Of a stretch of 64,000 nt of DNA, positions 1-42,371 are shown in pieces. The notes below the pieces were generated by a model that had not been told where the DNA came from, made no database searches, and saw nothing but the letters and a program-made list of their open reading frames with translations. The stretch's first letter is position 1, and each line of letters begins with the position of its first letter. The DNA lies in the sequence record MK295205; one strand, given 5' to 3'. The translations under genes and the position numbers were made by a program. The stretch is from Shigella phage vB_SflM_004.

Positions 1-119
1 GCTGAAGGTGACTTTTACCGTTGCTACGATGCAGATTTAAAAGGTGTAACACCTAGAGGGAAAGTCCTGCAAAGACTTGTTGACCTTGAGTGGAATAAAC
101 GATTGAGAGAGGTTGGAAA

Positions 120-623
120 ATGATTTACGAAGAAAGATACAAGATAGATTATCAGGATACCCGTCATCACACTTCTTTGAGAGTAACCAAACCAAATGGG
201 GATACTGGTATCATAGCACATTTTGGTGGTGATTATTGGTACGGTACAGGTTGCTTTGAAGGCTACACTCAAGAATACTTGAAAGCCTTCTACAGAGACT
301 TTACAAACGACTACAACAGAGTTGTTGACGAAAAGAATAAGTGCATTAAGCATGAACACCATGCCAGAGGCTGCCTAAGTATTGTTATGGTACTGGCGTT
401 CTTCTTAGCAATGTTACTGGCAGTATCAGCAATTAGCTGCATAGCTCAAGATTTGACAATTACACAGATTACTTCAAAGATACATGATATCTGGTACTTG
501 TATGCTGTTCCTTTAGCTGGTATTATCATCTCACTAATGAGGTTCAGAGTTCATAAGAAACGACTTAAGGACTCTGAAGTTAAACTTGAAGAGGTAAGTA
601 AAGAATGCAACCTACAATTATAG
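120..623 (+). CDS. hypothetical membrane protein
   Basis: 167-aa ORF; hydrophobic stretch LSIVMVLAFFLAMLLAVSAISCIA consistent with a TM helix; no catalytic motif recognised. Confidence 0.4.
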   Translation: MIYEERYKIDYQDTRHHTSLRVTKPNGDTGIIAHFGGDYWYGTGCFEGYTQEYLKAFYRDFTNDYNRVVDEKNKCIKHEHHARGCLSIVMVLAFFLAMLLAVSAISCIAQDLTITQITSKIHDIWYLYAVPLAGIIISLMRFRVHKKRLKDSEVKLEEVSKECNLQL

Positions 624-1007
624 CTGTATGTGTTCGTTTTGCAATCGCTGAAATGATTAACAAGGCAATCTTAAAAGATGCCTATGGAGAGACTAAGTAA
701 TGATTAAGACACCTGTACCAATTTTTGGATTCCCTTCTATAGAAGAGTTCAAAGTTTATCTTGACAAAAACTTCTACAACGAGCAGCCTGTTACTTTGCT
801 GAAACCACTCACTTCTGTGAAGGTTTTTATCGGAGAGTGACTTATCAGAGCTTCTTGATATGGTTATTAAGGCAACTTCTGAGAAGGAGCCTGAACAGAA
901 AGCTGAGAAGAAGACTAGTAAGAAATCTGATAAGAAGACTGAAAAGTCTGAGTAATAACTTAGGGGTTACTTGATAGCCCCTTTGTAGAAACTTAGAAGG
1001 TAGCGAA

Positions 1008-1430
1008 ATGAAAGAGCTTATTGGTAAAAGATTGACAGTTTACTGCTCTAAAACAAAGAAACCACTCACTTCTGTGAAGGTTTTTGATGTTGACACCACT
1101 GGTGTAGAGTACCCAATCCAATGCACAATAATTACTCCATTCAATGCAGATGATATGGATTTTAAAGAGTGTGAAGTGATATCTTTTAATGCTGATGGGT
1201 ATTGGAGAGGTAAGTTAAACAAGCAATCAAAAGATTTTGATATGCAAATCCTTATCAATGAAGGCTATATCTGTGTAAAAGATATCCTCGTAGAAGCCTA
1301 TGAAGAGGGTATAATAGATGTTGTGCATGATGTTGAAAAAGCTTTAAAGCTTGTTATGCCACATTTAGAATCTGGAAAGCTGACTTTAGAGATGCTTAAT
1401 AGGGTTATTCGGAGAGCTTATGAAAATTAA
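1008..1430 (+). CDS. hypothetical protein, present only in copy 1 of the duplication
   Basis: 140-aa ORF using the duplicated leader/RBS (gaaggtagcgaaATG); shares a 28-nt stretch encoding KPLTSVKVF with an upstream mini-ORF at ~808-835. Confidence 0.45.
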   Translation: MKELIGKRLTVYCSKTKKPLTSVKVFDVDTTGVEYPIQCTIITPFNADDMDFKECEVISFNADGYWRGKLNKQSKDFDMQILINEGYICVKDILVEAYEEGIIDVVHDVEKALKLVMPHLESGKLTLEMLNRVIRRAYEN

Positions 1431-1884
1431 AGAAACAGTTCGAAAAGCAATGCTTGATAACTCAACTAAAGATGAAATGTACAAAGAAATTTGTGATAAG
1501 TTGAATTGCTCAAGACATGCTGCTAAGGTTCTTGTACATTGTTTTATCTGGGAATGCTCAGAAGCTTATATGCAGTACGTAGCGTTTGAGAGTTCTCACT
1601 TACTAGGTGATGTAGAAACTGGTGAGAAGCTAAAAGAACCTGAGATGAAAACAGTCCCTAAAGTTGGTAATGTATACCCTCTTAAAGATTTCAAGACTGG
1701 AAAGATTGTTGCAAAAGGTGTAGTAGAATCTGTTTATCACGATGGTAAATACTTACTTAAAATATTTGAGTATGATAGCCACTACACACACTTGTGTGGG
1801 ATTACATTCTTAGTAACAGAAGAAGACCTCATTAAGAACAACGGCAACAAGTTTGCGGTTCCAGCTTACCAAGTTTTACGATAA
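1420..1884 (+). CDS. hypothetical protein, paralog A copy 1
   Basis: 154-aa ORF, about 90% identical to ORF 2846-3310; Cys-rich HCFIWECSEAYMQ motif. Confidence 0.55.
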   Translation: MKIKETVRKAMLDNSTKDEMYKEICDKLNCSRHAAKVLVHCFIWECSEAYMQYVAFESSHLLGDVETGEKLKEPEMKTVPKVGNVYPLKDFKTGKIVAKGVVESVYHDGKYLLKIFEYDSHYTHLCGITFLVTEEDLIKNNGNKFAVPAYQVLR

Positions 1885-1897
1885 TGGTGTGATAGCT

Positions 1898-2446
1898 ATG
1901 GAAAAAGATAACTTAAAAGAAGTTGAAGGTAACTATCTAGTCCTTGATTGGAGTGATGCTCAAGAAGCACTCTCTGAAGAAAGTCTTGACAGATTAAAAC
2001 AGATTGTTTTTGCAGTACGGGGTTACAGAGAAGTTAAAAATGGTAAAGACCCACTTGAAGGAGTCTTTGTAGAGAAATCTTATCCGTTCTATGAAGACAC
2101 TTTGCAGAAAGTTAAGATGTACTTTAGACAGAAGAACCGTAAAGTGGTCACTATGGTCTCTCTTGGTGGACAGAGTATGTCTGTGATGGAAGATATCAAC
2201 CCTAAGAGACCGAGTAAAGGTGTTTGTATAAAAATCACAGGTCATGAAGAGTATATCTCAGTGGATGACTTTAGAGCATTCTGTAGTGGTTCTTGTGTCT
2301 TTAATGGTTTTCACTATGATATCCGAGTGTACCCAATCAAGGGAGATGATATCATGATGCAGGTATTTGATAACAACAATGGATTTACTCATTTTTATCA
2401 GACAACCAAGTCATCACTGAAGACAGTTCTGGAAACACTGATTTAA
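1898..2446 (+). CDS. hypothetical protein, paralog B copy 1
   Basis: ORF 1853-2446 begins on a TTG; first ATG at 1898 (MEKDNLKEV); paralog of 3324-3872. Confidence 0.5.
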   Translation: MEKDNLKEVEGNYLVLDWSDAQEALSEESLDRLKQIVFAVRGYREVKNGKDPLEGVFVEKSYPFYEDTLQKVKMYFRQKNRKVVTMVSLGGQSMSVMEDINPKRPSKGVCIKITGHEEYISVDDFRAFCSGSCVFNGFHYDIRVYPIKGDDIMMQVFDNNNGFTHFYQTTKSSLKTVLETLI

Positions 2447-2466
2447 AATATCTCAAGAGCCTCCTT

Positions 2467-2498
2467 AATTGGGGGCTTTTTAATTTTTATAAAATTTA
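2467..2498 (+). terminator. rho-independent terminator
   Basis: GC stem GAGCCTCC/GGGGGCTT followed by a T-run directly after the stop of ORF 1898-2446. Confidence 0.5.
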
Positions 2499-2845
2499 TC
2501 GGTTGTCCCAACCTCTGGGTCACCACCATATGTGAATAAAATATCTATCCTTCTTAACAACCTTCTTAATCTTACTCTCTATATAGTTATATAGTACTAT
2601 ATAGTATCTTAGTAACTATCTAGTGGTCTTAATAGCGACTCTGTATAGTCCTTCTAAACACTCTTCTAACTGAGTGACTTATCAGAGCTTCTTGATATGG
2701 TTATTAAGGCAACTTCTGAGAAGGAGCCTGAACAGAAAGCTGAGAAGAAGACTAGTAAGAAATCCGATAAGAAGACTGAAAAGTCTGAATAATAACTTGA
2801 GGGGTTACTTGATAGCCCCTTTGTAGAAACTTAGAAGGTAGCGAA

Positions 2846-3310
2846 ATGAAAATTAAAGAAGTCGTTCAAAAAGCCATGCTTAACAATTCAACTAAACATG
2901 AAATGTACATAGAGATTTGTGATAAGTTGAATTGTACAAGACATGCTGCTAAGGTTCTTGTACATTGTTTTATCTGGGAATGCTCAGAGGCTTATATGCA
3001 ACATGTAGCTTTTGAAAGTTCTAACTTACTAGGTGATGTAGAAGCTGGTGAGAAACTAAAAGAACCTGAGATGAAAACAGTTCCTAAAGTTGGTAATGTA
3101 TACCGCCTTAAAGACTTCAAGACTGGAAAGATTGTTGCAAAAGGTGTAGTAGAATCTGTTTACCATGATGGTAAATACTTACTTAAAATATTTGAGTATG
3201 ATAGCAGATATACACACTTGTGTGGTCTTACATTCTTAGTAACAGAAGAAGACCTCATTAAGAACAACAACAACAAGTTTGCAGTACCAGATTACCAAGT
3301 TTTACGATAA
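2846..3310 (+). CDS. hypothetical protein, paralog A copy 2
   Basis: 154-aa ORF; paralog of 1420-1884; preceded by the duplicated leader and RBS. Confidence 0.55.
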   Translation: MKIKEVVQKAMLNNSTKHEMYIEICDKLNCTRHAAKVLVHCFIWECSEAYMQHVAFESSNLLGDVEAGEKLKEPEMKTVPKVGNVYRLKDFKTGKIVAKGVVESVYHDGKYLLKIFEYDSRYTHLCGLTFLVTEEDLIKNNNNKFAVPDYQVLR

Positions 3311-3323
3311 TGGTGTGATAGAT

Positions 3324-3872
3324 ATGGAAAAAGATAACTTAAAAGAAGTTGAAGGTAACTATCTAGTACTTGATTGGAATGATATTCGGGAAGCACTCTC
3401 CGAAGAAAATCTTGACTGGTTCGAACAAATTATCTTTGCAGTACGGCATAACAGAGAAGTTGAAAATGGTAAAGAGCCACTTGAAGGAATCTTTGTAGAA
3501 AGGTCTTATCCGTTCTATGAAGACACTTTACAGAAAGTTAAGATGTACTTTAGACAGAAGAACCGTAAAGTGGTCACTATGGTATCTCTTGGTGGACAGA
3601 GCATGTCTGTGATGGAAGATATCAACCCTAAGAGACCAAGTAAAGGTATCTGTATAAAAATCACAGGGCATGAAGAGTATATCTCAGTGGATGACTTTAG
3701 TGCATTCTGTAATGGTTCTGCTGTATTTAATGGGTTTCACTATGATATCCGAGTGTATCCAATCAAGGGAGATGATATCATGATGCAGGTATTCGATAAC
3801 AACAATGGGTTTACTCATTTTTATCAGACAACCAAGTCATCACTGAAGACAGTTCTGGAAACACTGATTTAA
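3324..3872 (+). CDS. hypothetical protein, paralog B copy 2
   Basis: ORF 3279-3872 begins on a TTG; first ATG at 3324; paralog of 1898-2446. Confidence 0.5.
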   Translation: MEKDNLKEVEGNYLVLDWNDIREALSEENLDWFEQIIFAVRHNREVENGKEPLEGIFVERSYPFYEDTLQKVKMYFRQKNRKVVTMVSLGGQSMSVMEDINPKRPSKGICIKITGHEEYISVDDFSAFCNGSAVFNGFHYDIRVYPIKGDDIMMQVFDNNNGFTHFYQTTKSSLKTVLETLI

Positions 3873-3882
3873 AATATCTTAA

Positions 3883-3914
3883 GAGCCTCCTTAATTGGGG
3901 GCTTTTTAATTTTT
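3883..3914 (+). terminator. rho-independent terminator, duplicate of the one at 2467
   Basis: Same GC hairpin plus T-run after the stop of ORF 3324-3872. Confidence 0.5.
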
Positions 3915-3929
3915 ATAAAATTTTATCGG

Positions 3930-5990
3930 TTGTCCCAACCTCTGGGTCACCATCATATGTGAATAAAATATCTATCCTTCTTAACAACCTTCTTAAGCTT
4001 ACTCTCTATATATAGTTATATAGTACTATATAGTATCTTAGTATCTATCTAGTGGTCTTAATAGCCCCTCTGTATAGTCCTTCTAAATATCTTAATAGCG
4101 TGGGCCCTCTAAATAGCCCTCTAAATAGCCCTCTAACAAGCCTTCTTAACAACCTATACAATCACCTTAACCATCTCTCTATAGCCTCTTAGAAGCCCCT
4201 ATACACCTCTTAATCTCTAGAAAGCCTTCTTAACAACCTATACAATCACCTTAACCATACCTCTACACCCTCTTAGAAGCTCCTATACACCTCTTAATCT
4301 CTATGTTACCTATGTTACCCTCTATAGGTGTTCACTAGGTATTACTAAGCCTCTATATAGAATATACACACTTGTGTGGTCTTACATTCATTGTTTTATC
4401 TGGGAATCTGTTTTAACAAACTTAACAGGAATATCTTTACAGACCTTATCTCACAAGGTCTAACACGGTACTAACAAGGTATCTTATAAGCCTGTTTATG
4501 CCTGTATTTTTAGAAGACTGTCTAGGTAATTATTCAGAATTTTAAAATTTTTATAAAATAGGACTATCAAGTCATTTTTTAGGGTCTTTGAAGGAACTCA
4601 AAAATATCTGTAGAAGATGTATATCTGCTTGGTAGCCCTTAACATCCCTGTAACATCTCCTTTGCAGAATTTTAAAAACCTAGAGGGAAAGTCCTGCAAA
4701 GACTTGTTGACCTTGAGTGGAATAAACATGCCTGTATATCCTTAACAATCTCTTAACAGTTACTACATCCTCTTAACATCTCTTCAGAGGTCTTAACAGA
4801 TTCTTAACAGAACTAACAAGGGCTTAACAATTTCTTAACAGTTGATACATGGTCTTTATAGTTCCCTATGTCAAATCTATCCTTAACAATCTCTTAACAG
4901 TTACTACATCCTCTTAACATCTCTTCAGAGGTCTTAACAGATTCTTAACAGAACTAACAAGGGCTTAACAGTTTCTTAACAGTTGCTACATGGTCTTTAC
5001 AGAGTTTTTATAAAATTTTATCGGGGTCTTAACAGATGACTAACAAGAGCTAACAAGTTAATTTTTAAGAGTTATTTTGTTAAGATAATTAACAAGTTCC
5101 TAACAAGTGTCTAATCTTTTTAACAAGCTATTAACACGGTCACTATCTCTTTTCTTATCGTTCCCTCTCTTTCTTAGTGATTCTCTAAATAGCCCTCTTA
5201 AAAGCTCTCTATAGCTCTTTGTAAGCTCTTTTAAGTCTCTTCCTAGTAATTACACCCCAACTGTACAGATACCTCTTTATAAGGCTTTACGGCTGTGTGG
5301 CAATATTCCTTGAACCATAGTCAAAAGGTCACAGAAGCTTTAAAGGCTATGTCAAAGACTCTTACAAGGCTTTTACGTGGTCTTAACAGAGATTTAACAA
5401 GGGGCTAACAAGTTGCTAACAAGTGCCTTATTCTTCTTATGCTGAAACTGCACATAAGATGGTTATAAGAAATTGTTAAGAAAATGTTAAGGGGGCTAGC
5501 ATTTACGTAACTTTATAGCCTCTTTTACGTAACTTTATAGCCTCTTTCACGTAACTTTGAAGCCCCTATAACATACTTTTAAGGCACTAACAAGCCCTTT
5601 TCAGATATTCACAAGATAACTAACGAGATGATAAAGCTTATACCCTTATAAGATTCTTTTAAGGCTATAGGAAGCTCTATAAAGGGCTTTTAAGGGTGAG
5701 TTAATGCAATCCCTTAAGTTAGGTTGATAAGGCTGTTATAGAGCTTTATAGAGCGTTTAAACGGTTGCCCTTCCCTTTCGGGTTATGGGCTTTTATTTAA
5801 GTTGATTTGATAAGAGGTTATAGAGTAGACTATAGAGTTATTGTTTTTAAGGTATGAGATAGATTCTATTGAATCAGGAGGATAGATTCTGGAAAGGAAA
5901 GGGAAAGGGTTGTATAGAGGCTATTACATAGACGTAAAAAAGCCCCATTTAAGGGGCTGTAAAGGTATCTGGGGCTATTTAGCCCCGTTG
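3930..5990. repeat. gene-free repeat-dense region (iteron-like direct repeats)
   Basis: About 2 kb with no ORF of 60 aa or more on either strand; dense cttaacag/ctaacaag motifs; ~80-bp unit repeated at ~4141 and ~4221; tacgtaactttatagcctctt x3 at ~5500-5570; copy of window nt 24-72 at ~4681-4729. Confidence 0.7.
4740..5000. repeat. near-perfect tandem direct repeat, ~117 bp x2 with a 141-bp period
   Basis: ccttaacaatctcttaacagttactacatcctcttaacatctcttcagaggtcttaacagattcttaacagaactaacaagggcttaaca... occurs twice in tandem. Confidence 0.8.
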
Positions 5991-5996
5991 CGTCGA

Positions 5997-6245
5997 TTAG
6001 TTGTAACCTTGTTTATTGTAGTACAGTGAGATAATCAAGTCACCCCAGTAATGATAGTGATGCTCGTCGTTTAATGCCTCTTTTACAGCGTCTTTCCAGA
6101 AGTCATCAGTAGGGTTATAATCTGGGATAACTTGCTTGATAACTGTCTTCACTAATGAAAAGCATTCATCAGTTCCACCAATATCAAATTTAACGTCCAG
6201 AGTATAACAGCCATAAGCATTGATAGTTGCGCGGATAGTTGCCAT
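5997..6245 (-). CDS. hypothetical early protein
   Basis: 82-aa ORF; ATG preceded by ggagattcgaaa RBS inside a family-1 intergenic element. Confidence 0.5.
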   Translation of the reverse strand: MATIRATINAYGCYTLDVKFDIGGTDECFSLVKTVIKQVIPDYNPTDDFWKDAVKEALNDEHHYHYWGDLIISLYYNKQGYN

Positions 6246-6313
6246 TTTCGAATCTCCTAGTTTAAGGACTTTATTTAGTGGGGAAGGTCATTCCCTCCCC
6301 GTTGATTAGTAAT
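6246..6313 (-). promoter_or_regulatory. intergenic hairpin+RBS element, family 1
   Basis: GGGGAAGGtcattCCCTCCCC hairpin followed on the minus strand by ctaaactggagattc and the next ATG. Confidence 0.5.
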
Positions 6314-6577
6314 TTACTGCATGTTGGCGTATGTTGCAAGCCTTTTTTCGTTGTATTTTGTCAGAATCTCACAAGATAAAACATCATATTTTGTAACCGC
6401 TTTGCCTTTGTCGAGGTCAAAGAATCCAAATGATTTACCATCTTTGAATCCGACAACTTCGTAAGATTCTTTAATGATTTCACCATTGAACAAATCACTT
6501 TCGATACGGTGGAATAGTGCTACATCCTCTTTGTCGGTTGCAATTTGTAAAAGTGTGTTCAGTTCGACGTGTTCCAT
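6314..6577 (-). CDS. hypothetical early protein
   Basis: 87-aa ORF; ATG with GGAG RBS from a family-1 element. Confidence 0.5.
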   Translation of the reverse strand: MEHVELNTLLQIATDKEDVALFHRIESDLFNGEIIKESYEVVGFKDGKSFGFFDLDKGKAVTKYDVLSCEILTKYNEKRLATYANMQ

Positions 6578-6638
6578 TTTGAATCTCCAGTTTAGGATTT
6601 TATTTAGTGGGGGAGGTCATCCCCCGTTGATTGACAAT
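6578..6638 (-). promoter_or_regulatory. intergenic hairpin+RBS element, family 1
   Basis: GGGGGAGGtcatCCCCC hairpin variant. Confidence 0.5.
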
Positions 6639-6959
6639 TTACAGACTTTTGATTGTCTCGTCAATATCTTTTTCAATTTCTCTTAAAGTTTTTTCTAAGT
6701 TCTTGATATTCAGCATTAACCCCTCTCCCAGTGTCTTAGCGTAACCATTTGGGCGATGGTCATAAAGCTCGATTTCTTCCACTTCGTAAAGGCTGACATT
6801 GAAGCCCCCTACCCCGTAGGCTGTGGATGAAGTGCCTTCCGGTGCTTTGTAGTACTTATTGAGATTCTTTAAAGAGCGCTCGTAAGCCATACGATAACCG
6901 TTTAACACTGTTTTAGTTGCCTTAATAGCAATCTCGTACACCTTCACACTGTACCGCAT
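6639..6959 (-). CDS. hypothetical early protein
   Basis: 106-aa ORF; weak RBS; alternative ATG at 6890; overlaps the upstream gene end. Confidence 0.4.
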   Translation of the reverse strand: MRYSVKVYEIAIKATKTVLNGYRMAYERSLKNLNKYYKAPEGTSSTAYGVGGFNVSLYEVEEIELYDHRPNGYAKTLGEGLMLNIKNLEKTLREIEKDIDETIKSL

Positions 6960-7179
6960 ACTTTTCTAAGAACAGCGGGAGGAGTTCCGCTACCGCTTGC
7001 ATGAAGTTCGATACTACAACGGTAGAAACATTACGACGATGAACGTAATAAGCCCCGTTTTCTGATTTAGTGATAGTTGCGAAATGTTCACCATTGCAAC
7101 GGAATTCATAGGTATCTTTTACAGGCTTGGACATTACATGATTTGAACGAATGTAGTTGATAGCTTGAAACTTGTTCAT
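6922..7179 (-). CDS. hypothetical early protein
   Basis: 85-aa ORF; ggagattctaaaATG start. Confidence 0.5.
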   Translation of the reverse strand: MNKFQAINYIRSNHVMSKPVKDTYEFRCNGEHFATITKSENGAYYVHRRNVSTVVVSNFMQAVAELLPLFLEKYAVQCEGVRDCY

Positions 7180-7256
7180 TTTAGAATCTCCAGTTTAGGA
7201 TTTTATTTAGTGGGGGAGGTCATCCCCCGTTGATTAGTAATTTACTTGTTTTAATT
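7180..7256 (-). promoter_or_regulatory. intergenic hairpin+RBS element, family 1
   Basis: Same consensus as 6246-6313. Confidence 0.5.
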
Positions 7257-7529
7257 TTCACCAATGATGAGCATTGCTAATGGCAACACAACAGAAACAA
7301 TCATACCGCAAAGGATAGGGTTTTTAATGATATCTAACATTTAGTGATTCTCCAGTTTAGGAAGTTGCCTTTTGAAGATACTATATAGATGTCTTTGCAA
7401 GCAATTTTTTAAGTTTATCTATAAAGAATCTTTTAAGTTAATCCCTTTTAGATAAACCCCCTCGAACAAAGTTACCAATGTCAAGGGGAGTTGTCAATAC
7501 TTTTTTAAAAGTTTTTTGTAAGTTCTTGA

Positions 7530-7871
7530 TTAACTGATGAATATTTTTTCAGGTTTTACATAGCTGATACGCTGGCTTTTTAGCAGGTCATCCCAGATTA
7601 ACGCGGCAATATGAGAATAGCCGGATTCACGTAAAAGCTTCATTGTTTTACTTCTCGTTTCAAAACGGCTTGCATAGTACTCACTATTCAGTGTCGTTTT
7701 ATTCCCTTCGTTATCTGTATGGATGATTTGCATCACTTGAAAGGGGCTTACATCCTCGCCTTTGTTCCACTGCTCAAAGTATTTTAGGCACTGCATAGGT
7801 GACATCTTATCACTGACTTGAGTTGACCAAGATGAATCTTCTTTATTGGTAATTACAGTTACATAAGCCAT
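7530..7871 (-). CDS. hypothetical early protein
   Basis: ORF 7530-7955 trimmed to the ATG at 7871 (MAYVTVITNK), which follows the element-type RBS cctaaacttgagaatctgaaa. Confidence 0.5.
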   Translation of the reverse strand: MAYVTVITNKEDSSWSTQVSDKMSPMQCLKYFEQWNKGEDVSPFQVMQIIHTDNEGNKTTLNSEYYASRFETRSKTMKLLRESGYSHIAALIWDDLLKSQRISYVKPEKIFIS

Positions 7872-8381
7872 TTTCAGATTCTCAAGTTTAGGATTATTGG
7901 TAAAGCTCTTTGTTAGGGTCTCAGAATAATAGCACCCGGGCCACATGTAGAGCACTTTAATAAACTCTAGCCATCAGTTTATTTACTGCCATAAATGTAT
8001 TATCTTTGCAGTGTAGACGACAGCTCTTCTATAAGAAAAGAAATTCTCCGTTGGATGCTATTTCTAGGCCTATCCTTGAGGCTTCCATGTTAAGGTTACA
8101 CTCTACACCTTTTAAACACCACAAGGTAGAAAGTTTTTGCATCAGTGATAACATTTTAGATTCTCCAGTTTACCCCATGTAAAGCACTTTATTAGTTATT
8201 TGTAGTAATAATATGTAAACTCATTTATCAGGAGCTAGAATTTCATCAATCAACTTTTTAGCGTCATCATTGGGAATTCTAACTTCCAGCCTCATCATTA
8301 TACTGCTTATGACTAGCCAGATAACCGCCATTCTGTGACATTAGGAGGTTGTAGATGCGTACAACTAACACCTGAGTATTT

Positions 8382-8460
8382 ATTAATCTCCAGTTTAGGA
8401 TTTTATTTAGTGGGGAGGCTATCCCTCCCCGTTGATTAGTAATTTACAGACTTTTATCAG
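8382..8460 (-). promoter_or_regulatory. intergenic hairpin+RBS element, family 1
   Basis: GGGGAGGctatCCCTCCCC hairpin copy. Confidence 0.5.
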
Positions 8461-8466
8461 GCTTGT

Positions 8467-8700
8467 CTAGTCTTTTTCAATGATAATTTCATACTGACCA
8501 TCAACACTATCAAAATAGACGCCGTCTTCATCTTCTGTCTTAAAGTAGCATTGTATGTCATCACTGGCGGGGTAGTCTTGTCTTGCTATCTGGCAAACTT
8601 GAATAGCATTTTCTTTACTTCCTGTGAACTCTTCAAGCCCTTTAAAATCGCATGAATGGCCGTTACAAATGGAAAGGATGAGATAAATGGTTGTAAGCAT
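8467..8700 (-). CDS. hypothetical small protein with hydrophobic N-terminus
   Basis: 77 aa; MLTTIYLILSICNGHSC looks like a signal peptide or TM segment. Confidence 0.45.
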   Translation of the reverse strand: MLTTIYLILSICNGHSCDFKGLEEFTGSKENAIQVCQIARQDYPASDDIQCYFKTEDEDGVYFDSVDGQYEIIIEKD

Positions 8701-8763
8701 GGTTTAAGCCCTCTAAATGGCCCTGTATGGGCCTTAAGTTGGAAGTTGGTGTCTTTGTATTGA

Positions 8764-9327
8764 TTAACCTAAAAAGTCGCTTAGATTGCGTTCTGTGATG
8801 TTTGCCGTGATTTTATCCAGCAAGTCACAAAACACGGAACTATCACCGCTATTCTGTACAATTTTCGCCATACTTAACAAATCATCGTCAACATAGCCTA
8901 AATTGCGGTTAGTTGCATCTGGTACAAAGAAAGGTGCATACATCGCACTAAATTTCGTTGAGTGTATGCTAACAATCCAATTTTTATCAAAGTATCCGGT
9001 AAAGCTGGCAATTTCGCTCATGTTGTCACAAGAATAATCATCCTCTAGCTCTTCCTCTGGGATATCCATTTCAATAACAATCACTTCCTGCGTCTCCATT
9101 TGGAAAGCTGCCGTGATAAGCCCAGACTCTAAAGCGCTTTGAATGCAGCGTTCACGGATGTAAGAATCTTCCTCATCTTCCAGACATTCCGTTTTGATAA
9201 CCTTGTTCATTGGGTAAACGTAGAAACAATCGTCCATGTAGGAGCAGTTCCAGATTCCTTCCGGCTTGTCGCCACCATTCAGCAGGTTTACAAAGTTTTT
9301 GAGGGTAGTTCCGTGATAGCATTTCAT
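8764..9327 (-). CDS. hypothetical early protein
   Basis: 187-aa ORF; canonical ggagattcaaaaATG start. Confidence 0.5.
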   Translation of the reverse strand: MKCYHGTTLKNFVNLLNGGDKPEGIWNCSYMDDCFYVYPMNKVIKTECLEDEEDSYIRERCIQSALESGLITAAFQMETQEVIVIEMDIPEEELEDDYSCDNMSEIASFTGYFDKNWIVSIHSTKFSAMYAPFFVPDATNRNLGYVDDDLLSMAKIVQNSGDSSVFCDLLDKITANITERNLSDFLG

Positions 9328-9412
9328 TTTTGAATCTCCAGTTTAGGATTTAGTGGTAAAGCTCTTTATCTGGGGCTTACTTTATCGAACTATAAGCCCC
9401 TTGTAAAGTACT
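9328..9412 (-). promoter_or_regulatory. intergenic hairpin+RBS element, family 2
   Basis: GGGGCTTActttatcgaactaTAAGCCCC hairpin plus taaactggagattc RBS. Confidence 0.5.
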
Positions 9413-9661
9413 TTATTTAACTTTTTTTGAGAAAATTAGTTTAACTGCAACCGTAGGAATCTCGTCAGCGGTTGTAACCCGCATTACTTTTTGAGTGACC
9501 AACTTATAGCCGTTCTTTGCAGCGTATGCGGTAAAACGGTTAACGTTGTAACTATAAGTTTTTGGTGTGTTATCTGGCATGTGGTAAAGAAAAGGTTTAC
9601 CCAAATTTTCTTCTTGTGTCAACAGTCGGCAGGTATCAGGGATATTGAAATAGTTCATCAT
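9413..9661 (-). CDS. hypothetical early protein
   Basis: 82-aa ORF with ATGATG start after a family-2 element. Confidence 0.5.
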   Translation of the reverse strand: MMNYFNIPDTCRLLTQEENLGKPFLYHMPDNTPKTYSYNVNRFTAYAAKNGYKLVTQKVMRVTTADEIPTVAVKLIFSKKVK

Positions 9662-9751
9662 TTTTGAATCTCCTAGTTTAAGGATTATGTAAAGCTCTTT
9701 ATCTGGGGCTTACTGTACAGACTTATAAGCCCCTTGTAAAGTACTTTTTAT
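9662..9751 (-). promoter_or_regulatory. intergenic hairpin+RBS element, family 2
   Basis: GGGGCTTA...TAAGCCCC hairpin copy. Confidence 0.5.
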
Positions 9752-9949
9752 TTAATTTTTGACAACTTTTAAAACTGCAAGATAACCTAAGCAATAAGAG
9801 TCACCGAAGAGAGTCCTACCCATGAAAGAATCCTCTTTGATATCCTTTGCAGTGACAGTTTTTTCTACGCCGTGGGAAAGGACTACATCACCAACTTTGA
9901 TATCTTTGATGTGTGTTGTTTCAATGGTTAAGCCGTTAATAATAGCCAT
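9752..9949 (-). CDS. hypothetical early protein
   Basis: 65-aa ORF; element RBS. Confidence 0.45.
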   Translation of the reverse strand: MAIINGLTIETTHIKDIKVGDVVLSHGVEKTVTAKDIKEDSFMGRTLFGDSYCLGYLAVLKVVKN

Positions 9950-10030
9950 TTTAGAATCTCCTAATTTAAGGACTTTATTTAGTAGGGAGGTTATTGCCTC
10001 CCCGTTGATGAGTAATTTAATCTATCTAAA
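9950..10030 (-). promoter_or_regulatory. intergenic hairpin+RBS element, family 1
   Basis: GGGAGGttattgCCTCCCC hairpin variant. Confidence 0.5.
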
Positions 10031-14717: not shown

Positions 14718-15167
14718 TTAGCATCTCTCCCAAGATTCTTTATCTTCTGAAGGTTTTACACGTTGTCCTTCGTGGTCTACCCAGATACATCCACAACCTT
14801 CACAGATTACTGGCATTGCATAGCCAGCTTTAAAGTCATCTTCAGTGATAAGACCTTTTAAGTCTCCTGTATCACGCCCGAACATTTCGATAGCACAATC
14901 TTTGCAGAAGTCAGCCATGAATAATTGCCTCTTGAATGATGATACCTTTGCCACAACGACTTTTGAAGTCTTCCAATGGTCAAGTTCCTCTGTGAGATGA
15001 AGCCACGCAATATAGTGGCAATAACTAAATGCTAATTTTTCCCTGTAGGCTATCACATCATTTTTATAGATTCGTGCTGTAAATGGAATCACTTTATTCC
15101 TTCCAATGAATACTGCTGACCGGATAATTTTCCGTGTCTTTTTATCTCTGGCTAGAATTACTCTCAT
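14718..15167 (-). CDS. hypothetical protein with C-terminal Cys-rich (zinc-ribbon-like) region
   Basis: 149-aa ORF; CKDC...CEGCGC cysteine pairs; start uncertain (internal MADFCKDC possible). Confidence 0.4.
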   Translation of the reverse strand: MRVILARDKKTRKIIRSAVFIGRNKVIPFTARIYKNDVIAYREKLAFSYCHYIAWLHLTEELDHWKTSKVVVAKVSSFKRQLFMADFCKDCAIEMFGRDTGDLKGLITEDDFKAGYAMPVICEGCGCIWVDHEGQRVKPSEDKESWERC

Positions 15168-15468
15168 AATTTACCTTCTCAGTCAGTTCATACAAGTCAA
15201 CATGTTCAATGCTATCAATGTTGATACCAATCTTTTTGAAGCGTTCTATCACTTCGTTGTCAGTCATCCATATCAGACACCAATGATTGTGGATGGATTC
15301 TTCAAGGAGGTCAACACAATCTTTAAAAGTTTTTGTATCACTCCTTGTTCCGACTACTGCGATTGTCCCATACAACCACTTACCATTACCATAAGATACT
15401 TGTGCTACGCCAACTTCTTTATCTTTCTCGTAGTAAACGGCTACAAAGTCTCTTCCATTAATCTGCAT
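15142..15468 (-). CDS. hypothetical protein
   Basis: 108-aa ORF with GAGGG RBS. Confidence 0.45.
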   Translation of the reverse strand: MQINGRDFVAVYYEKDKEVGVAQVSYGNGKWLYGTIAVVGTRSDTKTFKDCVDLLEESIHNHWCLIWMTDNEVIERFKKIGINIDSIEHVDLYELTEKVNYESNSSQR

Positions 15469-15477
15469 AGTTAACCC

Positions 15478-15747
15478 TCACTTCCTCGTTTTAAGAACTG
15501 CTAAGATTTCTTTAGAATCTGGTAAGAACCATGTGTAGTGATTTTCTTTGATTTCTGGATGGGTGTCAACCTTTATTTTGCACTCTTTACCAACGTGCTT
15601 AAGCTGTGCTGTGACACCTTGCATAAAGATATGACACATCACATTATCCATAATGGTTGGTAAGAAGTCAATTCGCATATAAGTTTCTTTTGGTCGTGGT
15701 AACAGTAAGTAACCTTCTACGTAAAAAGTATCTTCATTCTCTGTCAT
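15478..15747 (-). CDS. hypothetical protein
   Basis: 89-aa ORF with AGGAAA RBS. Confidence 0.45.
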   Translation of the reverse strand: MTENEDTFYVEGYLLLPRPKETYMRIDFLPTIMDNVMCHIFMQGVTAQLKHVGKECKIKVDTHPEIKENHYTWFLPDSKEILAVLKTRK

Positions 15748-16013
15748 TGCTGTTTATTTCCTAATAAAATCATATCAATAAGGTTATTAGCTTTGATTGT
15801 GCACTGGTAAAAACCATCACGATAAAACTCAAGGGCTTCTGCCACATCACTACCAGTATTACCTTTAATGATATACCGTGATTCTTCTTGAGTGTACTTG
15901 TCACTCTCACTTACTTGGGAGTTTTTGAATGTACTGTTCATTTTGTTCGTTGAACACCCTGACATAATTATCAGTAACACAAACATTATAAAACTCTGGC
16001 TTAGTTTTTTCAT
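15744..16013 (-). CDS. putative o-spanin (outer-membrane lipoprotein)
   Basis: Signal peptide ending in the lipobox-like IMSGC; start lies inside the 3-prime end of the upstream membrane-protein gene in another frame. Confidence 0.5.
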   Translation of the reverse strand: MKKLSQSFIMFVLLIIMSGCSTNKMNSTFKNSQVSESDKYTQEESRYIIKGNTGSDVAEALEFYRDGFYQCTIKANNLIDMILLGNKQQ

Positions 16014-16254
16014 ATGTTAGTACCTCTTTTGTGTGCTTATTCTTAGCAAGCACATCTTTCAAATCATTTTTGTAATTGGTGCTGAGTGTGGCTAAACCTT
16101 CCTGATAAGCATCTTTAGCAACACTTATTAGTTTCTCATTGCTTAACTCAGCTTCAGCAACTTGGTAGTCTCTGTAAGAGTATCCTCCCCAGACACCTAC
16201 CCCAACTAAGAAAACAATTATGAAAGTAGCTTGACAGAACTCTTTAAATGTCAT
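15907..16254 (-). CDS. putative i-spanin (type II inner-membrane protein)
   Basis: N-terminal TM helix ATFIIVFLVGVGVWGGY, then a periplasmic region; overlaps the lipoprotein gene by ~107 nt; AGGAGA RBS. Confidence 0.5.
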   Translation of the reverse strand: MTFKEFCQATFIIVFLVGVGVWGGYSYRDYQVAEAELSNEKLISVAKDAYQEGLATLSTNYKNDLKDVLAKNKHTKEVLTYEKTKPEFYNVCVTDNYVRVFNEQNEQYIQKLPSK

Positions 16255-19323: not shown

Positions 19324-21696
19324 TTAATCGTAAATTGTAGTCCCTTCTGGAACACACTTCACATCAAAGCCTAAGAACTTACTCACTTCGATGGGTGACA
19401 CTTTATTCCAATCTAAATGAGAAAGCAAGAAGTTTTCTTGTTTTCTTTTTGAAAGGTAGTTTGTCACCTTAATGACCATGCGGTCACCAGCTTTCTTAAT
19501 TTTCTTGTACAGCTTTGTATCGTTGTCAAGACAACTTTTCAAATCTTGCAACACGCTAATAGTGTAAGTGTATGCAAACGGTGCAGCAACGTATTGGATT
19601 TTACCAAACATTGCCTCAACAGCGTCTTCATTGCCTTCTAAGAAGATAGTTTTGTTTGTGTCTCGTGAATAGCAATAGCCACGAGAAATCTTCCTGTTAT
19701 TGAACGTAAAGTTTCTGGCAATAATCCAACTGCTTGTGAGGTCAAGGACACCATTCATATAGATACGTGTCATATATCTGTTATGATTAATCCAGTGAAC
19801 ATCAGTTAAGCTGTCGTTCAAGAGCTTCTCATCTACTTCAATCCAATCTTCTGGTATCTTTTTCCAATTTGCTTTTCGGAAAACATAGACTGTCTTCCCT
19901 GTAACATTAGCAACTGACTTAGCTACATCTTCTGGAGATGAGCAAAAACATTCGCCATCAACTGTGTCGCCGACTGCCTTAATGTAAAGCTGAGGTTCTT
20001 CAATTGTGTCTAAGTCTTCTGACACCTCTTTATAGGAAGCTACACCTTCTGCTGGACACTTGACAGCTTTCCAGAGTTTTACAACACCTCTTACAGCTTC
20101 TTTACGCTGATAATGGTGTTCCTTCTCAGACATCTTCACAATCTTTAACAAGCTTTTATCAAGTTTGTGTAGATTGATTAAGTCGTCTAGCTCTTTTTCA
20201 GTCGAGAATACAAAGACAATACCATTGTATCTGTGAAACAGATTCGACTCACTGGCATAGTCTCGACATGCACCACGCAAGATTTGATTGCGCCCTACAG
20301 TCTTCTCAGTACCGTTTTTATTGCGACGGTCATTTATAACAAACAAAAACTGTTCAATTTGGCTTTTACGCATTGCGCCAAAGATATTGAACATACTTGC
20401 CTCTTGAGTGTAGGAAAGCGATGTTGCACGAATCTTACTCTCTAAAGAGTTGAACTTGACATAAGCAACTGGGTCATAAAGATAATCTACTTTAGGGATA
20501 TTGTTCCCGTTCCTATCAACCTTAATATTACCTTTACCGTCACGTTCGTAAATGACTGAGCCGTCTTCTGCGTAGATAATTCCACGACGAATGTTTAGTA
20601 ATTCTTCTTCCAGAGAATCAAGCTTAACACCTCCCCACTCTAGCTTTGGACACACAACATTAAACATCTCTCGTGAGTTCAAGCGTAACTCAGCATAAGC
20701 CTGTGCAGCATCCATGAGTGTAGGTTGACTATTAACTTTCTTGATGACATCCTTTGTAATTGCTTCAGTTATCTTTTTAGTAGCCTCGATGATAACATTT
20801 TTTGTCGTGTCATTCATCTGCAATGCTTCACGGGAAGCTGCAATAGCAACTGAACCAATAGGCATGTAGATGTTTACAAGGTCTATGCTCCTGCGGAAAA
20901 ATTCTGGTAATACTTTGAAGAAATCATCACCAAGTAATGCCTCCATATTAACTGGGTAGGCAATATTACCCATAACCACGTTAAACTCTGTTCTATTGCT
21001 GCTTGAACGCCAGCTATGCTTATGAGTCATGGCATCATAGACACCTTCTTCACGAGCAATCACATCCATATCTGCTAATATATCATTATACTCCACATTA
21101 CTCTCTGGTTTTACAGCAAAGTATGAGTATACATTACCAGCCTCTTCAAAGAACTTTGAAATACGGTGGTCAGCAACTGCCACGCGTACAGCTAAACCAT
21201 TAGGTTCTTTTGTTGGGTTAGTGGTCAGCTTAGTTACTTGAGGGATACCATTCTCAAGATAAACAGAGTACTTATTAACAACACCGTCAACATAGCTAGA
21301 CACTGTGAATGACTGAGCAATTGCAAATGGTGATTTTGAGCCGATACCCATTGCACCAATGTAGTCATTAGAGTCATTCTTCGTAGAAGCCCCATAGTTT
21401 AGGTACAAACTCATAACTTTATCATGAGTCAATCCAGTTCCAAAATCACGAACTTCAAAGTAAGGCTCAAAACGAGTAGGTAAATGCACATGGAACGGGA
21501 TGTTCTCTTTTCCAGCCTCTTTCTGAGCATCTACTGCGTTACATGACAGTTCACGAATCACTGCCCTTTCTTTAAAGGTATATACACCAGAACTCAAAAG
21601 GCTGAACATTTCAGGTGTCATTGTAATCTGTGCTTGAGACGTCTCTAAAGAAGTTGAACTCTTAATCACTTCTGCGTGGTCGTTTACCATGCGCAT
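19324..21696 (-). CDS. rIIA: rIIA-like protein with N-terminal GHKL-type ATPase domain
   Basis: 790 aa; RELSCNAVDA, VRDFGTGL, GIGSKSPF motifs (HATPase_c-like); ASREALQMND; strong RBS. Confidence 0.8.
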   Translation of the reverse strand: MRMVNDHAEVIKSSTSLETSQAQITMTPEMFSLLSSGVYTFKERAVIRELSCNAVDAQKEAGKENIPFHVHLPTRFEPYFEVRDFGTGLTHDKVMSLYLNYGASTKNDSNDYIGAMGIGSKSPFAIAQSFTVSSYVDGVVNKYSVYLENGIPQVTKLTTNPTKEPNGLAVRVAVADHRISKFFEEAGNVYSYFAVKPESNVEYNDILADMDVIAREEGVYDAMTHKHSWRSSSNRTEFNVVMGNIAYPVNMEALLGDDFFKVLPEFFRRSIDLVNIYMPIGSVAIAASREALQMNDTTKNVIIEATKKITEAITKDVIKKVNSQPTLMDAAQAYAELRLNSREMFNVVCPKLEWGGVKLDSLEEELLNIRRGIIYAEDGSVIYERDGKGNIKVDRNGNNIPKVDYLYDPVAYVKFNSLESKIRATSLSYTQEASMFNIFGAMRKSQIEQFLFVINDRRNKNGTEKTVGRNQILRGACRDYASESNLFHRYNGIVFVFSTEKELDDLINLHKLDKSLLKIVKMSEKEHHYQRKEAVRGVVKLWKAVKCPAEGVASYKEVSEDLDTIEEPQLYIKAVGDTVDGECFCSSPEDVAKSVANVTGKTVYVFRKANWKKIPEDWIEVDEKLLNDSLTDVHWINHNRYMTRIYMNGVLDLTSSWIIARNFTFNNRKISRGYCYSRDTNKTIFLEGNEDAVEAMFGKIQYVAAPFAYTYTISVLQDLKSCLDNDTKLYKKIKKAGDRMVIKVTNYLSKRKQENFLLSHLDWNKVSPIEVSKFLGFDVKCVPEGTTIYD

Positions 21697-21758
21697 AATA
21701 CTTTCCTCTTAGTTGTCGTTGCGGTTCGCTATATAATAGTATAGTTCTTACTGTTAAA

Positions 21759-21938
21759 TTACTTGTTAAACATTTTACCAGAACCACCACACATAGGGCA
21801 ACAATGTCCTGCCCTTATGTACCCCTCTCCATTACAGTAGTCACATTTTTTGTGCTCTGCAAAGTACTTACAAAGGAGGTAAACAAATACTGCTACACTA
21901 CCAAGTGACAGCAAAATTTCTATCCAATATGCTTGCAT
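21759..21938 (-). CDS. small membrane protein with C-terminal zinc ribbon (59 aa, below the ORF-track cutoff)
   Basis: Hand-translated MQAYWIEILLSLGSVAVFVYLLCKYFAEHKKCDYCNGEGYIRAGHCCPMCGGSGKMFNK; GAGGTGA RBS. Confidence 0.35.
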   Translation of the reverse strand: MQAYWIEILLSLGSVAVFVYLLCKYFAEHKKCDYCNGEGYIRAGHCCPMCGGSGKMFNK

Positions 21939-36780: not shown

Positions 36781-37278
36781 TCAAGCACAGTTTGCTTTCA
36801 TTACCTTATGGATTCTTTTTTCAGCATCTTCATAAGTTTCTTTAGTAATAAACTTAATTGCTGCAATATTGGCATTGTAGAAGAGTCTGAGCTTAGAGTC
36901 AATCCTTTTTGTCATTACATCGAATTTATGTTGAAGGTTTGCTTCACCATAAACTAGACCACCTTTTGTGTAGTAGGTTTGAATAATGTAAAAGTCAAAA
37001 AACTCTTTTCCAAAACTCTCAATATCTTTTTTAATATACTCAGAAGAAGTCTCATAAGTCATCCAATCACTTTCCTTAGTGACTACCTTCTTCCGAGTCT
37101 TACCAGCAACTTTTCTTTTGGTCACACTATTAAGCTGTTTCTTTCCAATATAGTATTGTCCGGTTTTCTTACAGTGTACTAAATAGACAAAACCAAAATG
37201 TTTAGTGGGGTCAACTTCCCCACATAAAGATACCCAATGACCATAGGTGGGACAATTGCCAAATCCTTTAATCTTCAT
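36781..37278 (-). CDS. GIY-YIG-like domain protein (possible homing endonuclease)
   Basis: FGFVYLVHCKKTGQYYIGKK resembles the GIY...YIG core; adjacent to an HNH endonuclease. Confidence 0.4.
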   Translation of the reverse strand: MKIKGFGNCPTYGHWVSLCGEVDPTKHFGFVYLVHCKKTGQYYIGKKQLNSVTKRKVAGKTRKKVVTKESDWMTYETSSEYIKKDIESFGKEFFDFYIIQTYYTKGGLVYGEANLQHKFDVMTKRIDSKLRLFYNANIAAIKFITKETYEDAEKRIHKVMKANCA

Positions 37279-37774
37279 TCATACACGGCTCCTGATTTGT
37301 GAACTCTCTGTGAAGTTCTTCTCTTTTCTTTCTAATTGCTTCTTTGGCATCATCAACGTTATCAAACAGACCAAGGAAATGTGTTACACCGTGAACCATA
37401 ATCCTTGCTCTCCACTTCTGTGAAGCTTTGTTGAATGATACACCTTTTACACCAGATGTATTGTTGGAGTGTATTTTTCTATTCCAACAATTTTCAGCTT
37501 GAGTGCAAACTCTCAAGTTCATTCTTCGGTTGTCATCAGTAATTCCGTTACGATGGTCTACACGGTCTGGTAAGAACCCCTCTGTGTAAAGAATGGCTAA
37601 ATCATGAGCCATGTATGATTTTCTCTTTATGGTAATCCTGATATAACCCCTTTTATGGGGTGTTCCAGCAACTGAACCAATGACTGTCCTATTAGCCGAT
37701 TTCTTCAACCAAGTAAAGACCCCTGTTTCGGGGTCATAATGAAGATACTCTTTAAGTGTCTGCTGAGTCAACAT
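37268..37774 (-). CDS. HNH homing endonuclease (HNH + AP2-like domain)
   Basis: 168 aa; YDPETGVFTW, VDHRNGITDDNRRMNL HNH core, GVKGVSF...ARI AP2-like. Confidence 0.75.
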   Translation of the reverse strand: MLTQQTLKEYLHYDPETGVFTWLKKSANRTVIGSVAGTPHKRGYIRITIKRKSYMAHDLAILYTEGFLPDRVDHRNGITDDNRRMNLRVCTQAENCWNRKIHSNNTSGVKGVSFNKASQKWRARIMVHGVTHFLGLFDNVDDAKEAIRKKREELHREFTNQEPCMNED

Positions 37775-42178: not shown

Positions 42179-42371
42179 TAGCACCTCTTCGTTGTAGTTC
42201 TGCCTTCAATCCATTTTCAATCTTGTCAAGTTCATGGACTTCATCTGCAATCTCTTTCCTTCGTGATTCAACTCTCTTAAGACGTTCAATCATTACCTCA
42301 TTGGAAAGAGATGAGAGTTCCACTAAACGATGGTCAATAACTTTGAAATTATCTTTTACTCTCATCTTCAT
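42171..42371 (-). CDS. hypothetical coiled-coil protein
   Basis: 66-aa ORF. Confidence 0.4.
   Translation of the reverse strand: MKMRVKDNFKVIDHRLVELSSLSNEVMIERLKRVESRRKEIADEVHELDKIENGLKAELQRRGANV

Follow-up and report, generated by a model that had tools for sequence, protein, structure and literature searches.

A 64,000-nucleotide stretch of the genome of Shigella phage vB_SflM_004 (record MK295205; this whole stretch is called the window below, with position 1 its first letter) contains a 2.1-kb gap between genes, at 3873–5996, in which copies of a short word, TAACA, recur at helical spacing. We conclude, from sequence comparisons, that this gap is a cis-acting non-coding DNA element common to the subfamily Ounavirinae and kept in all four genera examined. 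The gap is very likely a protein-bound element under selection. As to its function, we tentatively favor a replication origin of the iteron-plus-unwinding-element type, a reading to which we give slightly less than an even chance.

The window matches 256 phage records when positions 3900–6000 are used as a megablast query (best coverage 92–95% at 87–91% identity), and the gap is present in all 256. These records are named for Escherichia, Salmonella, Shigella, Citrobacter, Enterobacteria, or Felixounavirus, with a single exception filed under Staphylococcus, and every matching record inspected is classified in the Ounavirinae. On the strength of these matches, the window belongs to a Felixounavirus genome. 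Felix O1 is a classical diagnostic and biocontrol phage whose relatives are abundant in sequence databases. The element appears to be undescribed: no replication origin for this phage group, and no mention of the gap, was found in the Felix O1, VpaE1, UAB_Phi87, and BASEL papers or in the full-text literature searched. One element of 1.6–2.1 kb, with a word, a phasing, unwinding-prone blocks, and two candidate binders, makes the start of Felix O1 replication experimentally addressable. If it is an origin, it would give a T7-type replisome an iteron-like starting point; otherwise, it would be a large conserved regulatory element of another kind.

Phased TAACA arrays and low-stability blocks

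The gap lies between two converging operons and is non-coding. It is bordered on the left by the homolog of Felix O1 ORF24 (ending at 3872, + strand) and on the right by the homolog of ORF23 (5997–6245, – strand), and these are the last genes of the converging transcription units, "transcriptons 40-24 and 97-131/1-23" (Felix O1 paper). Both operons end in an intrinsic terminator that points into the gap. A first-pass annotation of the window had reported no open reading frame (ORF) of 60 aa or more here; indeed, the longest ORF between 3873 and 5996 has 46 aa. There is no conserved small ORF in the gap, the largest ORFs stand at non-conserved positions, and in two relatives every ORF of the gap falls short of 30 aa.

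The dominant feature of the gap is the TAACA word, which the first-pass annotation had noticed as reiterations of cttaacag and ctaacaag. We counted 39 copies on the + strand and 6 on the – strand, with the consensus YTAACAR (c-Y-TAACA-R); arrays often open with a longer site, GGTCTTAACAG. The density of YTAACAR in the gap is 15.1 per kb, while the rest of the window has 0.37–0.61 per kb and about 0.4 per kb is expected (an enrichment of roughly 37-fold); similarly, CTTAACAG has 12 copies in the gap and one on the same strand of the other 62 kb. The T7-primase-like site [GT]GGTC is enriched only within the extended site GGTCTTAACAG. The spacing of the word is not random: 16 of the 38 intervals between TAACA copies are exactly 11 bp and 25 of 38 fall within 9–11 or 20–22 bp, values reached by none of 20,000 random placements in the gap of the window. 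The same beyond-chance phasing was found in Felix O1, Mordin, SUSP1, and a locus from contig IMGVR_UViG_645044533 (L022). No other YTAACAR cluster exists in the remaining 62 kb of the window. Outside the gap, the only close pair with near-helical (12-bp) spacing is TTTAACAAGTAATTTAACAG (21757–21776, – strand), which stands just upstream of a 790-aa rIIA-like ORF (19324–21696) and within a less stable segment (21730–21770).

The main parts of the element, from left to right, are as follows (entropies are column entropies from an alignment of 20 gap sequences; TRF, Tandem Repeats Finder; dG, computed duplex stability).

3881–3906, + strand: intrinsic terminator of the left operon, marking the left edge of the element (terminator scan; annotated at the same place in AYO145A and Mordin)
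3993–4053, strand-neutral: TATATAG array, candidate unwinding element 1 (TRF, periods 8 and 18; second-best conserved block of the gap)
4414–4480, + strand: TAACA cluster A, sites at 4414, 4423, 4461, and 4472 (site list; 4444–4483 is the best conserved block of the gap, entropy 0.06)
4527–4567, strand-neutral: AT-rich block, candidate unwinding element 2 (dG –39.7, entropy 0.16)
4604–4677, + strand: deeply conserved unique core, TGTATATCTGCTTGGTAG ... CCTTTGCAGAATTTTAAAA, with TAACA sites at 4640 and 4651 (entropy 0.14; kept as far as Erwinia phage phiEa21-4)
4737–5002, + strand: TAACA cluster B, a tandem duplicate with period 141, 98% identical, 16 sites, opening at GGTCTTAACAG, spacings 11, 9, 11, and 11
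4737–4861 and 4878–5002: the two copies of the 141-bp tandem, 125 nt each (TRF 4737–4999, period 141, 1.9 copies, 98% matches)
5025–5140, + strand: TAACA cluster C, seven sites forward and the one at 5077 inverted, with an invariant AT-rich block (5051–5091) in their midst
5379–5423, + strand: TAACA cluster D, GGTCTTAACAG and then three further sites, each 11 bp apart (kept in all genera)
5466–5493, – strand: cluster E, two TAACA sites of opposite orientation that face cluster D (inverted repeats I1–I9)
5941–5958, – strand: intrinsic terminator of the right operon, marking the right edge of the element (terminator scan; annotated in AYO145A and Mordin)

For cluster B, the first-pass annotation had described a unit of about 117 bp repeated with a 141-bp period; the tandem arrangement and the period hold, while the unit is 125 nt long. 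The cluster is single-copy in relatives, where it keeps the same spacing pattern, and its 9/11/11 pattern recurs in phiEa21-4. Cluster E is nearly invariant in relatives, with four copies in two of them (L048 and L089), and phiEa21-4 has about eight copies of ATGTTR at 11-bp spacing.

We calculated nearest-neighbor duplex stability for 40-bp windows across all 64 kb (mean dG –51.1, sd 3.0). The least stable segment of all is 4007–4047, within the TATATAG array (dG –37.4), and the second is its duplicate at 2579–2619; the AT-rich block at 4527–4567 ranks third (dG –39.7) and the block at 5051–5091 tenth (dG –41.0). These blocks are among the best conserved of the gap (entropy 0.09 for 3993–4034, 0.16 for 4527–4567, and 0.14–0.15 for 5051–5091), and only 4444–4483 (0.06) lies below 0.09. 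On computed stability, then, the three AT/TA-rich blocks (4007–4047, 4527–4567, and 5051–5091) are candidate unwinding elements.

Conservation of the element and insertions private to this genome

Felixounavirus, Suspvirus (SUSP1), and Mooglevirus (Mordin and KPS64) have the gap in collinear form, with a length of 1.6–1.75 kb compared to 2.1 kb here, and it is better conserved than the genes on either side. Its nucleotide identity to the Mooglevirus and Suspvirus sequences is 77–78% over aligned columns, while the flanking genes have 61–71% and the flanking proteins about 50%. Conservation within the arrays is selective. In the 20-sequence alignment, 82% of the columns in TAACA cores are invariant (entropy 0.10) compared to 58% of the other columns inside arrays (entropy 0.32; Mann-Whitney p = 2.6e-7). 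Fixed CTTAACA cores are seen in it to alternate with freely varying spacers of 3–4 nt; the TAACA spacing pattern is identical across genera. Purifying selection is stronger on the motif cores than on the spacers, and this, with the retention of the gap across four genera, supports the general idea of protein-binding arrays put forward in the first-pass annotation.

The most distant genus is Kolesnikvirus, represented by phiEa21-4. Both DNA searches of the phage collection missed this phage, yet at the syntenic place it too has a gap free of genes. In the orientation of the window, that gap holds 20 TAACA copies (14 per kb compared to about 1.5 per kb nearby), among them the 9/11/11 spacing, and the array continues with the opposed ATGTTR copies and with 12 copies of TTAGAAG at 10–12 bp. 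It shares with the window the unique core TGTATATCTGCTTRGTRG ... CCTTTGCAAAATCTTAAMATATC and has an AT-rich block at the place matching 4527–4567. Because syntenic arrays are present in phiEa21-4 too, we consider the element a feature of the whole subfamily. The gap has no match in plasmids and E. coli genomes. We also scanned viral contigs and 185,579 genomes for phased TAACA; among the matches listed, large arrays occur only in contigs of 84–90 kb that contain the gap's cluster sequences, some of which had also been recovered by way of a gap-flanking protein, and the remaining matches listed are simple 11-bp tandem repeats in unrelated organisms.

The gap of this genome has 450 bp more than those of 19 relatives. 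The extra DNA comprises two tandem duplications, a 22-nt copy of the block around TTTTTATAAAAT (described below), and four inserts that hold five blunt, exact copies of distant segments of this genome.

4362–4407, + strand: insert with two exact patches of a neighboring 154-aa gene, from 3208–3235 (28 nt) and from 2963–2981 or its duplicate 1537–1555 (19 nt)
4678–4736, + strand: insert with an exact copy of 51–100 (50 nt, at 4678–4727) and 9 nt more
5289–5330, + strand: 42-nt insert with an exact copy of 59860–59883 (24 nt, at 5304–5327)
5431–5454, + strand: patch that is an exact copy of 49736–49759 (24 nt), from a ligase-like ORF

The first-pass annotation had recognized the second of these as a copy of window positions 24–72; a copy it is, with 51–100 as the source. 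No homology flanks the five patches (19, 24, 24, 28, and 50 nt), and the inserts are lacking in the other 19 gap sequences. The 50-nt patch matched 209 phage records; all of them have just the source, in its native gene context, and none has the junction. The other junction searched for matched nothing within the E-value threshold applied. The patches resemble the templated filler DNA left by template switching or break repair. We also considered a CRISPR array, which is ruled out by unrelated flanks around the patches and the lack of a constant flanking repeat. The private inserts always lie between clusters and never within one, which fits a modular element with tolerant linkers.

A larger rearrangement reaches the gap from the left. 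In this 1.43-kb segmental duplication, 1420–2658 recurs at 2846–4087 and 837–1007 at 2664–2845, so that the first 215 bp of the gap, with the TATATAG block, are present twice, as are two neighboring genes of 154 and 182 aa; a 140-aa gene (1008–1430) is missing from the second copy. The place measures 3.2 kb in Salmonella phages SWJM-02, pSJ21, FM4b, and SUT_S920, which may have a similar duplication.

Candidate functions of the element

Phased head-to-tail arrays, a longer first site, an opposed array, and meltable blocks together give the architecture of an iteron-plus-unwinding-element origin: the gap has co-oriented direct repeats, helical phasing, and adjacent AT-rich DNA of low computed stability. 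The working units are arrays of two to five YTAACAR copies, one helical turn (11 bp) apart and all co-oriented but for a small opposed array at the right. These arrays are interleaved with the three easily melted AT/TA-rich blocks, and the terminators on either side shield the element from the two converging operons. A putative sequence-specific DNA-binding protein would attach head-to-tail along one face of the helix, and a large nucleoprotein complex would assemble on 25–40 sites. This complex would open the adjoining low-stability blocks, onto which a T7-type replisome would be loaded. The components of such a replisome are encoded in the window, namely, a gp4-like primase-helicase (40193–42184) and a family A polymerase (44649–47378).

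We compared the gap to textbook features of known systems: iteron origins, oriC arrays, and the T7 origin here, and pho boxes and the Cox and Apl operators below. Like the iteron origins of phage P4 (ori/crr), lambda (ori), P1 (oriR), and theta plasmids, the gap has short, co-oriented direct repeats on one helix face with AT-rich, meltable DNA adjoining, and its 141-bp duplication resembles P4 crr, in which two long direct repeats each contain several short sites. Unlike these origins, it spreads 25–39 sites over more than 1.3 kb, uses a 7-bp word rather than one of 17–22 bp, has no adjacent or overlapping initiator gene and no enrichment of DnaA or IHF sites, and lies between converging operons. 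The low-affinity DnaA arrays of E. coli oriC share with it co-oriented 11-bp sites nucleated by a stronger site, two opposite arrays, and an unwinding element at the side; the word itself, however, is not a DnaA box, since TTCTTAACA departs from TTWTNCACA in two of the specified bases and the CTAACAAG variants depart from it further. The T7 primary origin serves a replisome of the kind just described, is AT-rich, and also lies about 15% from one genome end, but it consists of two phage-polymerase promoters without site arrays, whereas the gap has no strong promoter. Felix O1-type phages encode no RNA polymerase (Felix O1 paper). The element is best classed as a phased binding-site array with unwinding elements in an unusual form: very large, built on a very short word, placed between converging operons, better conserved than the neighboring genes, and without a visible initiator.

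The first-pass annotation had listed an origin among its candidates, and this remains plausible given the direct-repeat arrays, the conserved low-stability blocks, and the opposed array. Several observations weigh against it. Among the scanned ORFs of the window, large ones included, and beside the gap, no member of a Rep, DnaA-like, or origin-binding family was recognized. DnaA boxes are not enriched (one in the gap, at 3958–3966, which is not conserved, and ten in the window compared to 11 expected), and IHF sites are at chance level. The gap lies where two transcription units converge, so that departing forks would meet transcription head-on on both sides, while origins are more often found at points of divergence. 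T7-type replisomes, moreover, classically start from transcription-primed origins and not from iteron origins. Insertions of 42–59 nt and duplications are tolerated between the modules, so the exact geometry between clusters is not critical. The gap also lies at the maximum of cumulative GC skew, which had been proposed as a check: in the 64-kb window the maximum falls at about 4 kb and the minimum at about 44 kb, but both extremes coincide with switches in gene orientation, so the skew is not independent evidence. Within the gap, the local skew inverts, from –0.70 at 4175–4324 to +0.54 at 5825–5974.

Which protein might bind the arrays is suggested by the operon that ends at the gap. Its last two genes encode proteins of 154 aa (2846–3310) and 182 aa (3324–3872), with duplicates at 1420–1884 and 1898–2446. 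The 154-aa protein has a predicted helix-turn-helix (HTH) of the LuxR/sigma-region-4 type and a Tudor-like domain, and its N-terminal 54 residues match proteins of Gamaleyavirus and of Klebsiella phages with genomes of about 40 kb; the 182-aa protein has a predicted Whirly-like (Whirly/MRP-like) domain. Searches of Pfam, PHROGs, and NCBIfam with ten neighboring ORFs assigned no function, and sequence searches of the PDB with profiles of the two proteins gave no match. By adjacency and predicted fold only, then, both are leads as candidate binders. As further points against the origin as drawn above, the 18 kb surrounding the gap of phiEa21-4 yielded no homolog of either protein, and the listed or tallied matches to the 154-aa protein include no record of an Erwinia phage. 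With no homolog found near that gap, a role of these proteins as the universal partner of the element is not supported.

A serious alternative to the origin, or an additional layer on top of it, is that the gap or its right part is transcribed from the + strand into a non-coding RNA, whose UAACA repeats would act as a sponge or scaffold for an RNA-binding or single-strand-binding protein such as the Whirly-like neighbor. We consider this unlikely, though it comes closest of the alternatives. Sliding RNAalifold z-scores against column shuffles were inflated, and therefore just two hairpins were taken further.

5663–5754, + strand: long imperfect inverted repeat of 27 pairs (RNAalifold, 18 distinct sequences)
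5767–5798, + strand: conserved, terminator-like hairpin, GCCC..CCC-TTTC-GGG..GGGC followed by TTTTATTT

In the first, pairing is kept in the 18 distinct sequences (16 of 27 pairs are standard in all of them), changes are mostly G-U-compatible, on the + strand only, and one pair appears as GT, AT, or GC. In the second, the alignment read directly shows a compensatory change of the outer stem from GCCC/GGGC to GCCA/TGGC in two relatives (L016 and L019). An RNA would also agree with the strong strand asymmetry of motif and composition and with the adjacent 182-aa protein, because proteins with the Whirly/MRP-like fold bind single-stranded DNA or RNA. A weak promoter-like sequence, GTAACA-N17-TAAAAT, stands before cluster B, in the unique core (4604–4677), in 19 of 20 relatives, and here it is broken by an insertion. 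Other observations speak for duplex DNA or against transcription. Exact 11-bp phasing and an opposed array are traits of duplex DNA sites, and the terminators at both borders face inward. A sigma-70 scan found 10 sites compared to 7.8 in shuffles, which is no enrichment, and the best promoters conserved in 20 relatives have 9 of 12 matches, with the top two disrupted in this window. Rfam 15 (E up to 1, window positions 1–10000) gave no family match, just two chance-level Phe_leader matches on terminators (E about 0.7). The reverse-transcription PCR study of Felix O1 covered ORFs only (Felix O1 paper).

A related proposal, which we regard as distinctly improbable, combines the single-stranded form with the private insertions. 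Here, the gap would be a strand-specific scaffold rather than a conventional origin: the 25–40 phased YTAACAR copies, exposed as single-stranded DNA once the TA-rich blocks are melted or as RNA, would be coated by the adjacent Whirly-like and HTH-Tudor proteins, and the locus would be prone to breaks and template switches through which it gains short blunt copies of other parts of the genome, five of which are present here. If true, the gap would be a new kind of phage organizing center and a natural record of template switching.

The position of the gap raises the possibility that it is a barrier or terminus zone, in which protein-bound, oriented arrays halt forks or read-through transcription where gene blocks converge. 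Transcriptons 97-131/1-23 and 40-24 converge exactly at the gap, where the cumulative skew also peaks. The divergent replication-gene region (window position ~44 kb) is about 39–40 kb away, which makes the gap roughly antipodal to it on a circular map of about 87 kb, and the forward arrays of the gap face a smaller opposed array. By the standard of Tus/RTP-type fork traps, the opposed array exists (cluster E), but site numbers are very unequal, and at least 30 sites one way compared to 2 the other would make a poor trap. The skew follows gene orientation and adds nothing independent, and the conserved low-stability blocks would be left without a role. These phages, furthermore, have linear genomes with short terminal repeats, and such phages replicate through concatemers that need no terminus. 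To our knowledge, no terminator protein has been described for Felix O1-type phages. We give the barrier a small probability.

A similarly small probability goes to an array that soaks up a host or phage transcription factor, the more so the more genome copies there are, or serves as a bank of remote operators, with no role in replication. Phages of Escherichia, Salmonella, Shigella, Citrobacter, and Erwinia all have the 7-bp word, as expected of a conserved partner, and the pair TTTAACAAGTAATTTAACAG lies just upstream of the rIIA-like gene. The layout, seven conserved and four variable bases repeated head-to-tail every 11 bp, is that of pho boxes and other response-regulator sites. The gap resembles pho boxes and the operators of P2 Cox and 186 Apl in having a heptamer followed by about four variable bases in helical, head-to-tail repeats, which in those systems are bound cooperatively, but there 2–7 sites stand at promoters or attachment sites, whereas the gap has 25–40 in a dedicated gene-free region. 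No further clusters of the word occur in the remaining 62 kb, and we know of no enterobacterial factor with a YTAACAR consensus. The PhoP half-site reads TAAACA in reverse, while position 2 of the word is almost never A. Titration would also leave the conserved unique core and the low-stability blocks unexplained.

A packaging signal beside the terminus, or an injection-stop region like that of T5, had both been suggested in the first-pass annotation, and we reject them as very improbable. In the relative UAB_Phi87, Bal31 digestion and run-off sequencing located the physical ends (PMC4837284); its record begins and ends with the same 542-bp stretch, which falls within the tRNA cluster, next to the terminase gene. 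Conserved at 97–98%, that stretch is internal to almost every other record and separated from the gap by about 13 kb (EF202P1: gap 296–1907, repeat 14788–15329; EC6: gap 860–2499, repeat 15498–16039); it is not in our 64-kb window. PhageTerm terminal repeats of 581 and 613 bp are reported in two other relatives. The gap therefore adjoins no physical end mapped in relatives, so that a pac or cos terminase site is not supported. The injection-stop region of T5 (Repeat Region 3) lies in the long terminal repeat, at the boundary of first-step transfer, and has eight paired DnaA boxes (Davison, bioRxiv 10.1101/866236). The distance of the gap from one physical end is about 15% of the genome. Like the T5 region, the gap is 1–2 kb of non-coding DNA with dense direct and inverted repeats that is conserved group-wide better than the neighboring ORFs; unlike it, the gap is 13 kb from a terminal repeat of about 0.6 kb, and it has no DnaA-box pairs. 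The DNA between the physical end and the gap encodes tRNAs, a vWFA protein, an endolysin, and a tail protein, with no dedicated take-over module. With the ends in the tRNA cluster and neither DnaA boxes nor IHF sites enriched, we reject both roles.

Several database records do open inside or beside the gap, but their break points are scattered and lie at variable-number repeats. Examples among the many deposited relatives are OL825705, NC_031939, PP461118, MN994498, MK524176, OP172796, and JX560968, and several of the openings fall at a variable 22-bp repeat (window position ~5500). These openings are probably assembly breaks at variable-copy repeats, not real ends. In practical terms, repeat number varies here, assemblies break, and the region is usually left unannotated or given spurious small ORFs.

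Finally, we give almost no credence to functionless, decaying debris of duplications and gene remnants: the segmental duplication that reaches 215 bp into the gap, the two tandem duplications, and the gene-copied patches would suit it, but such features are private to this genome, while the underlying 1.6-kb scaffold is collinear in three genera, is found in 256 of 256 matching records, is better conserved than the flanking genes, and has selectively conserved motif cores.

Minor repeats and other features

The gap contains further repeats in addition to the TAACA arrays.

3910–3929, strand-neutral: near-palindromic AT-rich word TTTTTATAAAATTTTATCGG (repeat family D15)
4104–4146, + strand: GCCCTCTAAATA, 3.6 copies with period 12 (repeat family D2; related units at 5171–5223)
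4131–4298, + strand: 84-bp unit in two copies (4131–4214 and 4215–4298), 92% identical; the second copy is specific to this genome and relatives have one
5171–5241, + strand: CTCTAAATAGCCC, CTCTTAAAAGC, and CTCTATAGC repeats with period 11–12 (families D2 and D4)
5502–5558, + strand: TTTACGTAACTTTATAGCCTCT, 2.6 copies with period 22, 97% matches (TRF; copy number variable among relatives)
5856–5884, strand-neutral: palindrome of about 24 nt, GAGATAGATTCTATTGAATC..., a mini-element whose presence and place differ among relatives

Every repeat that the first-pass annotation named was recovered. The 84-bp unit and the TTTACGTAACTTTATAGCCTCT repeat correspond to two features of the first-pass annotation, a repeated unit of about 80 bp and a triple repeat near 5500–5570. 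The 12-nt core of TTTTTATAAAATTTTATCGG, TTTTTATAAAAT, is repeated at 5005–5016, 4548–4559, and 2484–2495. This 12-mer has just five exact copies in 64 kb, four of them within the gap or its duplicate; we had considered it as a phage-wide promoter word, which this count excludes, and it is local to the gap region.

Two small palindromes vary in presence and position. The mini-element TATGAGATAGATTCTATYGAATC has one copy in this window and occurs at varied positions and in both orientations in the gaps of relatives, lying in the loop of the left terminator in L009 and L010 and in that of the right terminator in L006, and it was also located in L013, L016, and L017. The second, ATTGGTATTGTTACCAA, varies in a similar way in L013, L017, L018, and L022.

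No tRNA or tmRNA was found in the whole window. The 82-aa protein on the right of the gap (5997–6245, – strand), the homolog of Felix O1 Gp23, has 47–62% identity in many records and is thus unusually divergent compared to the adjoining non-coding DNA; Gp23 was detected as a virion protein by proteomics (Felix O1 paper). Farther away, a thymidylate synthase ORF (55250–56140, + strand) has a weak HNH-endonuclease match in the middle of the protein (residues 167–186), and ORFs resembling HNH or homing endonucleases lie at 36781–37774.

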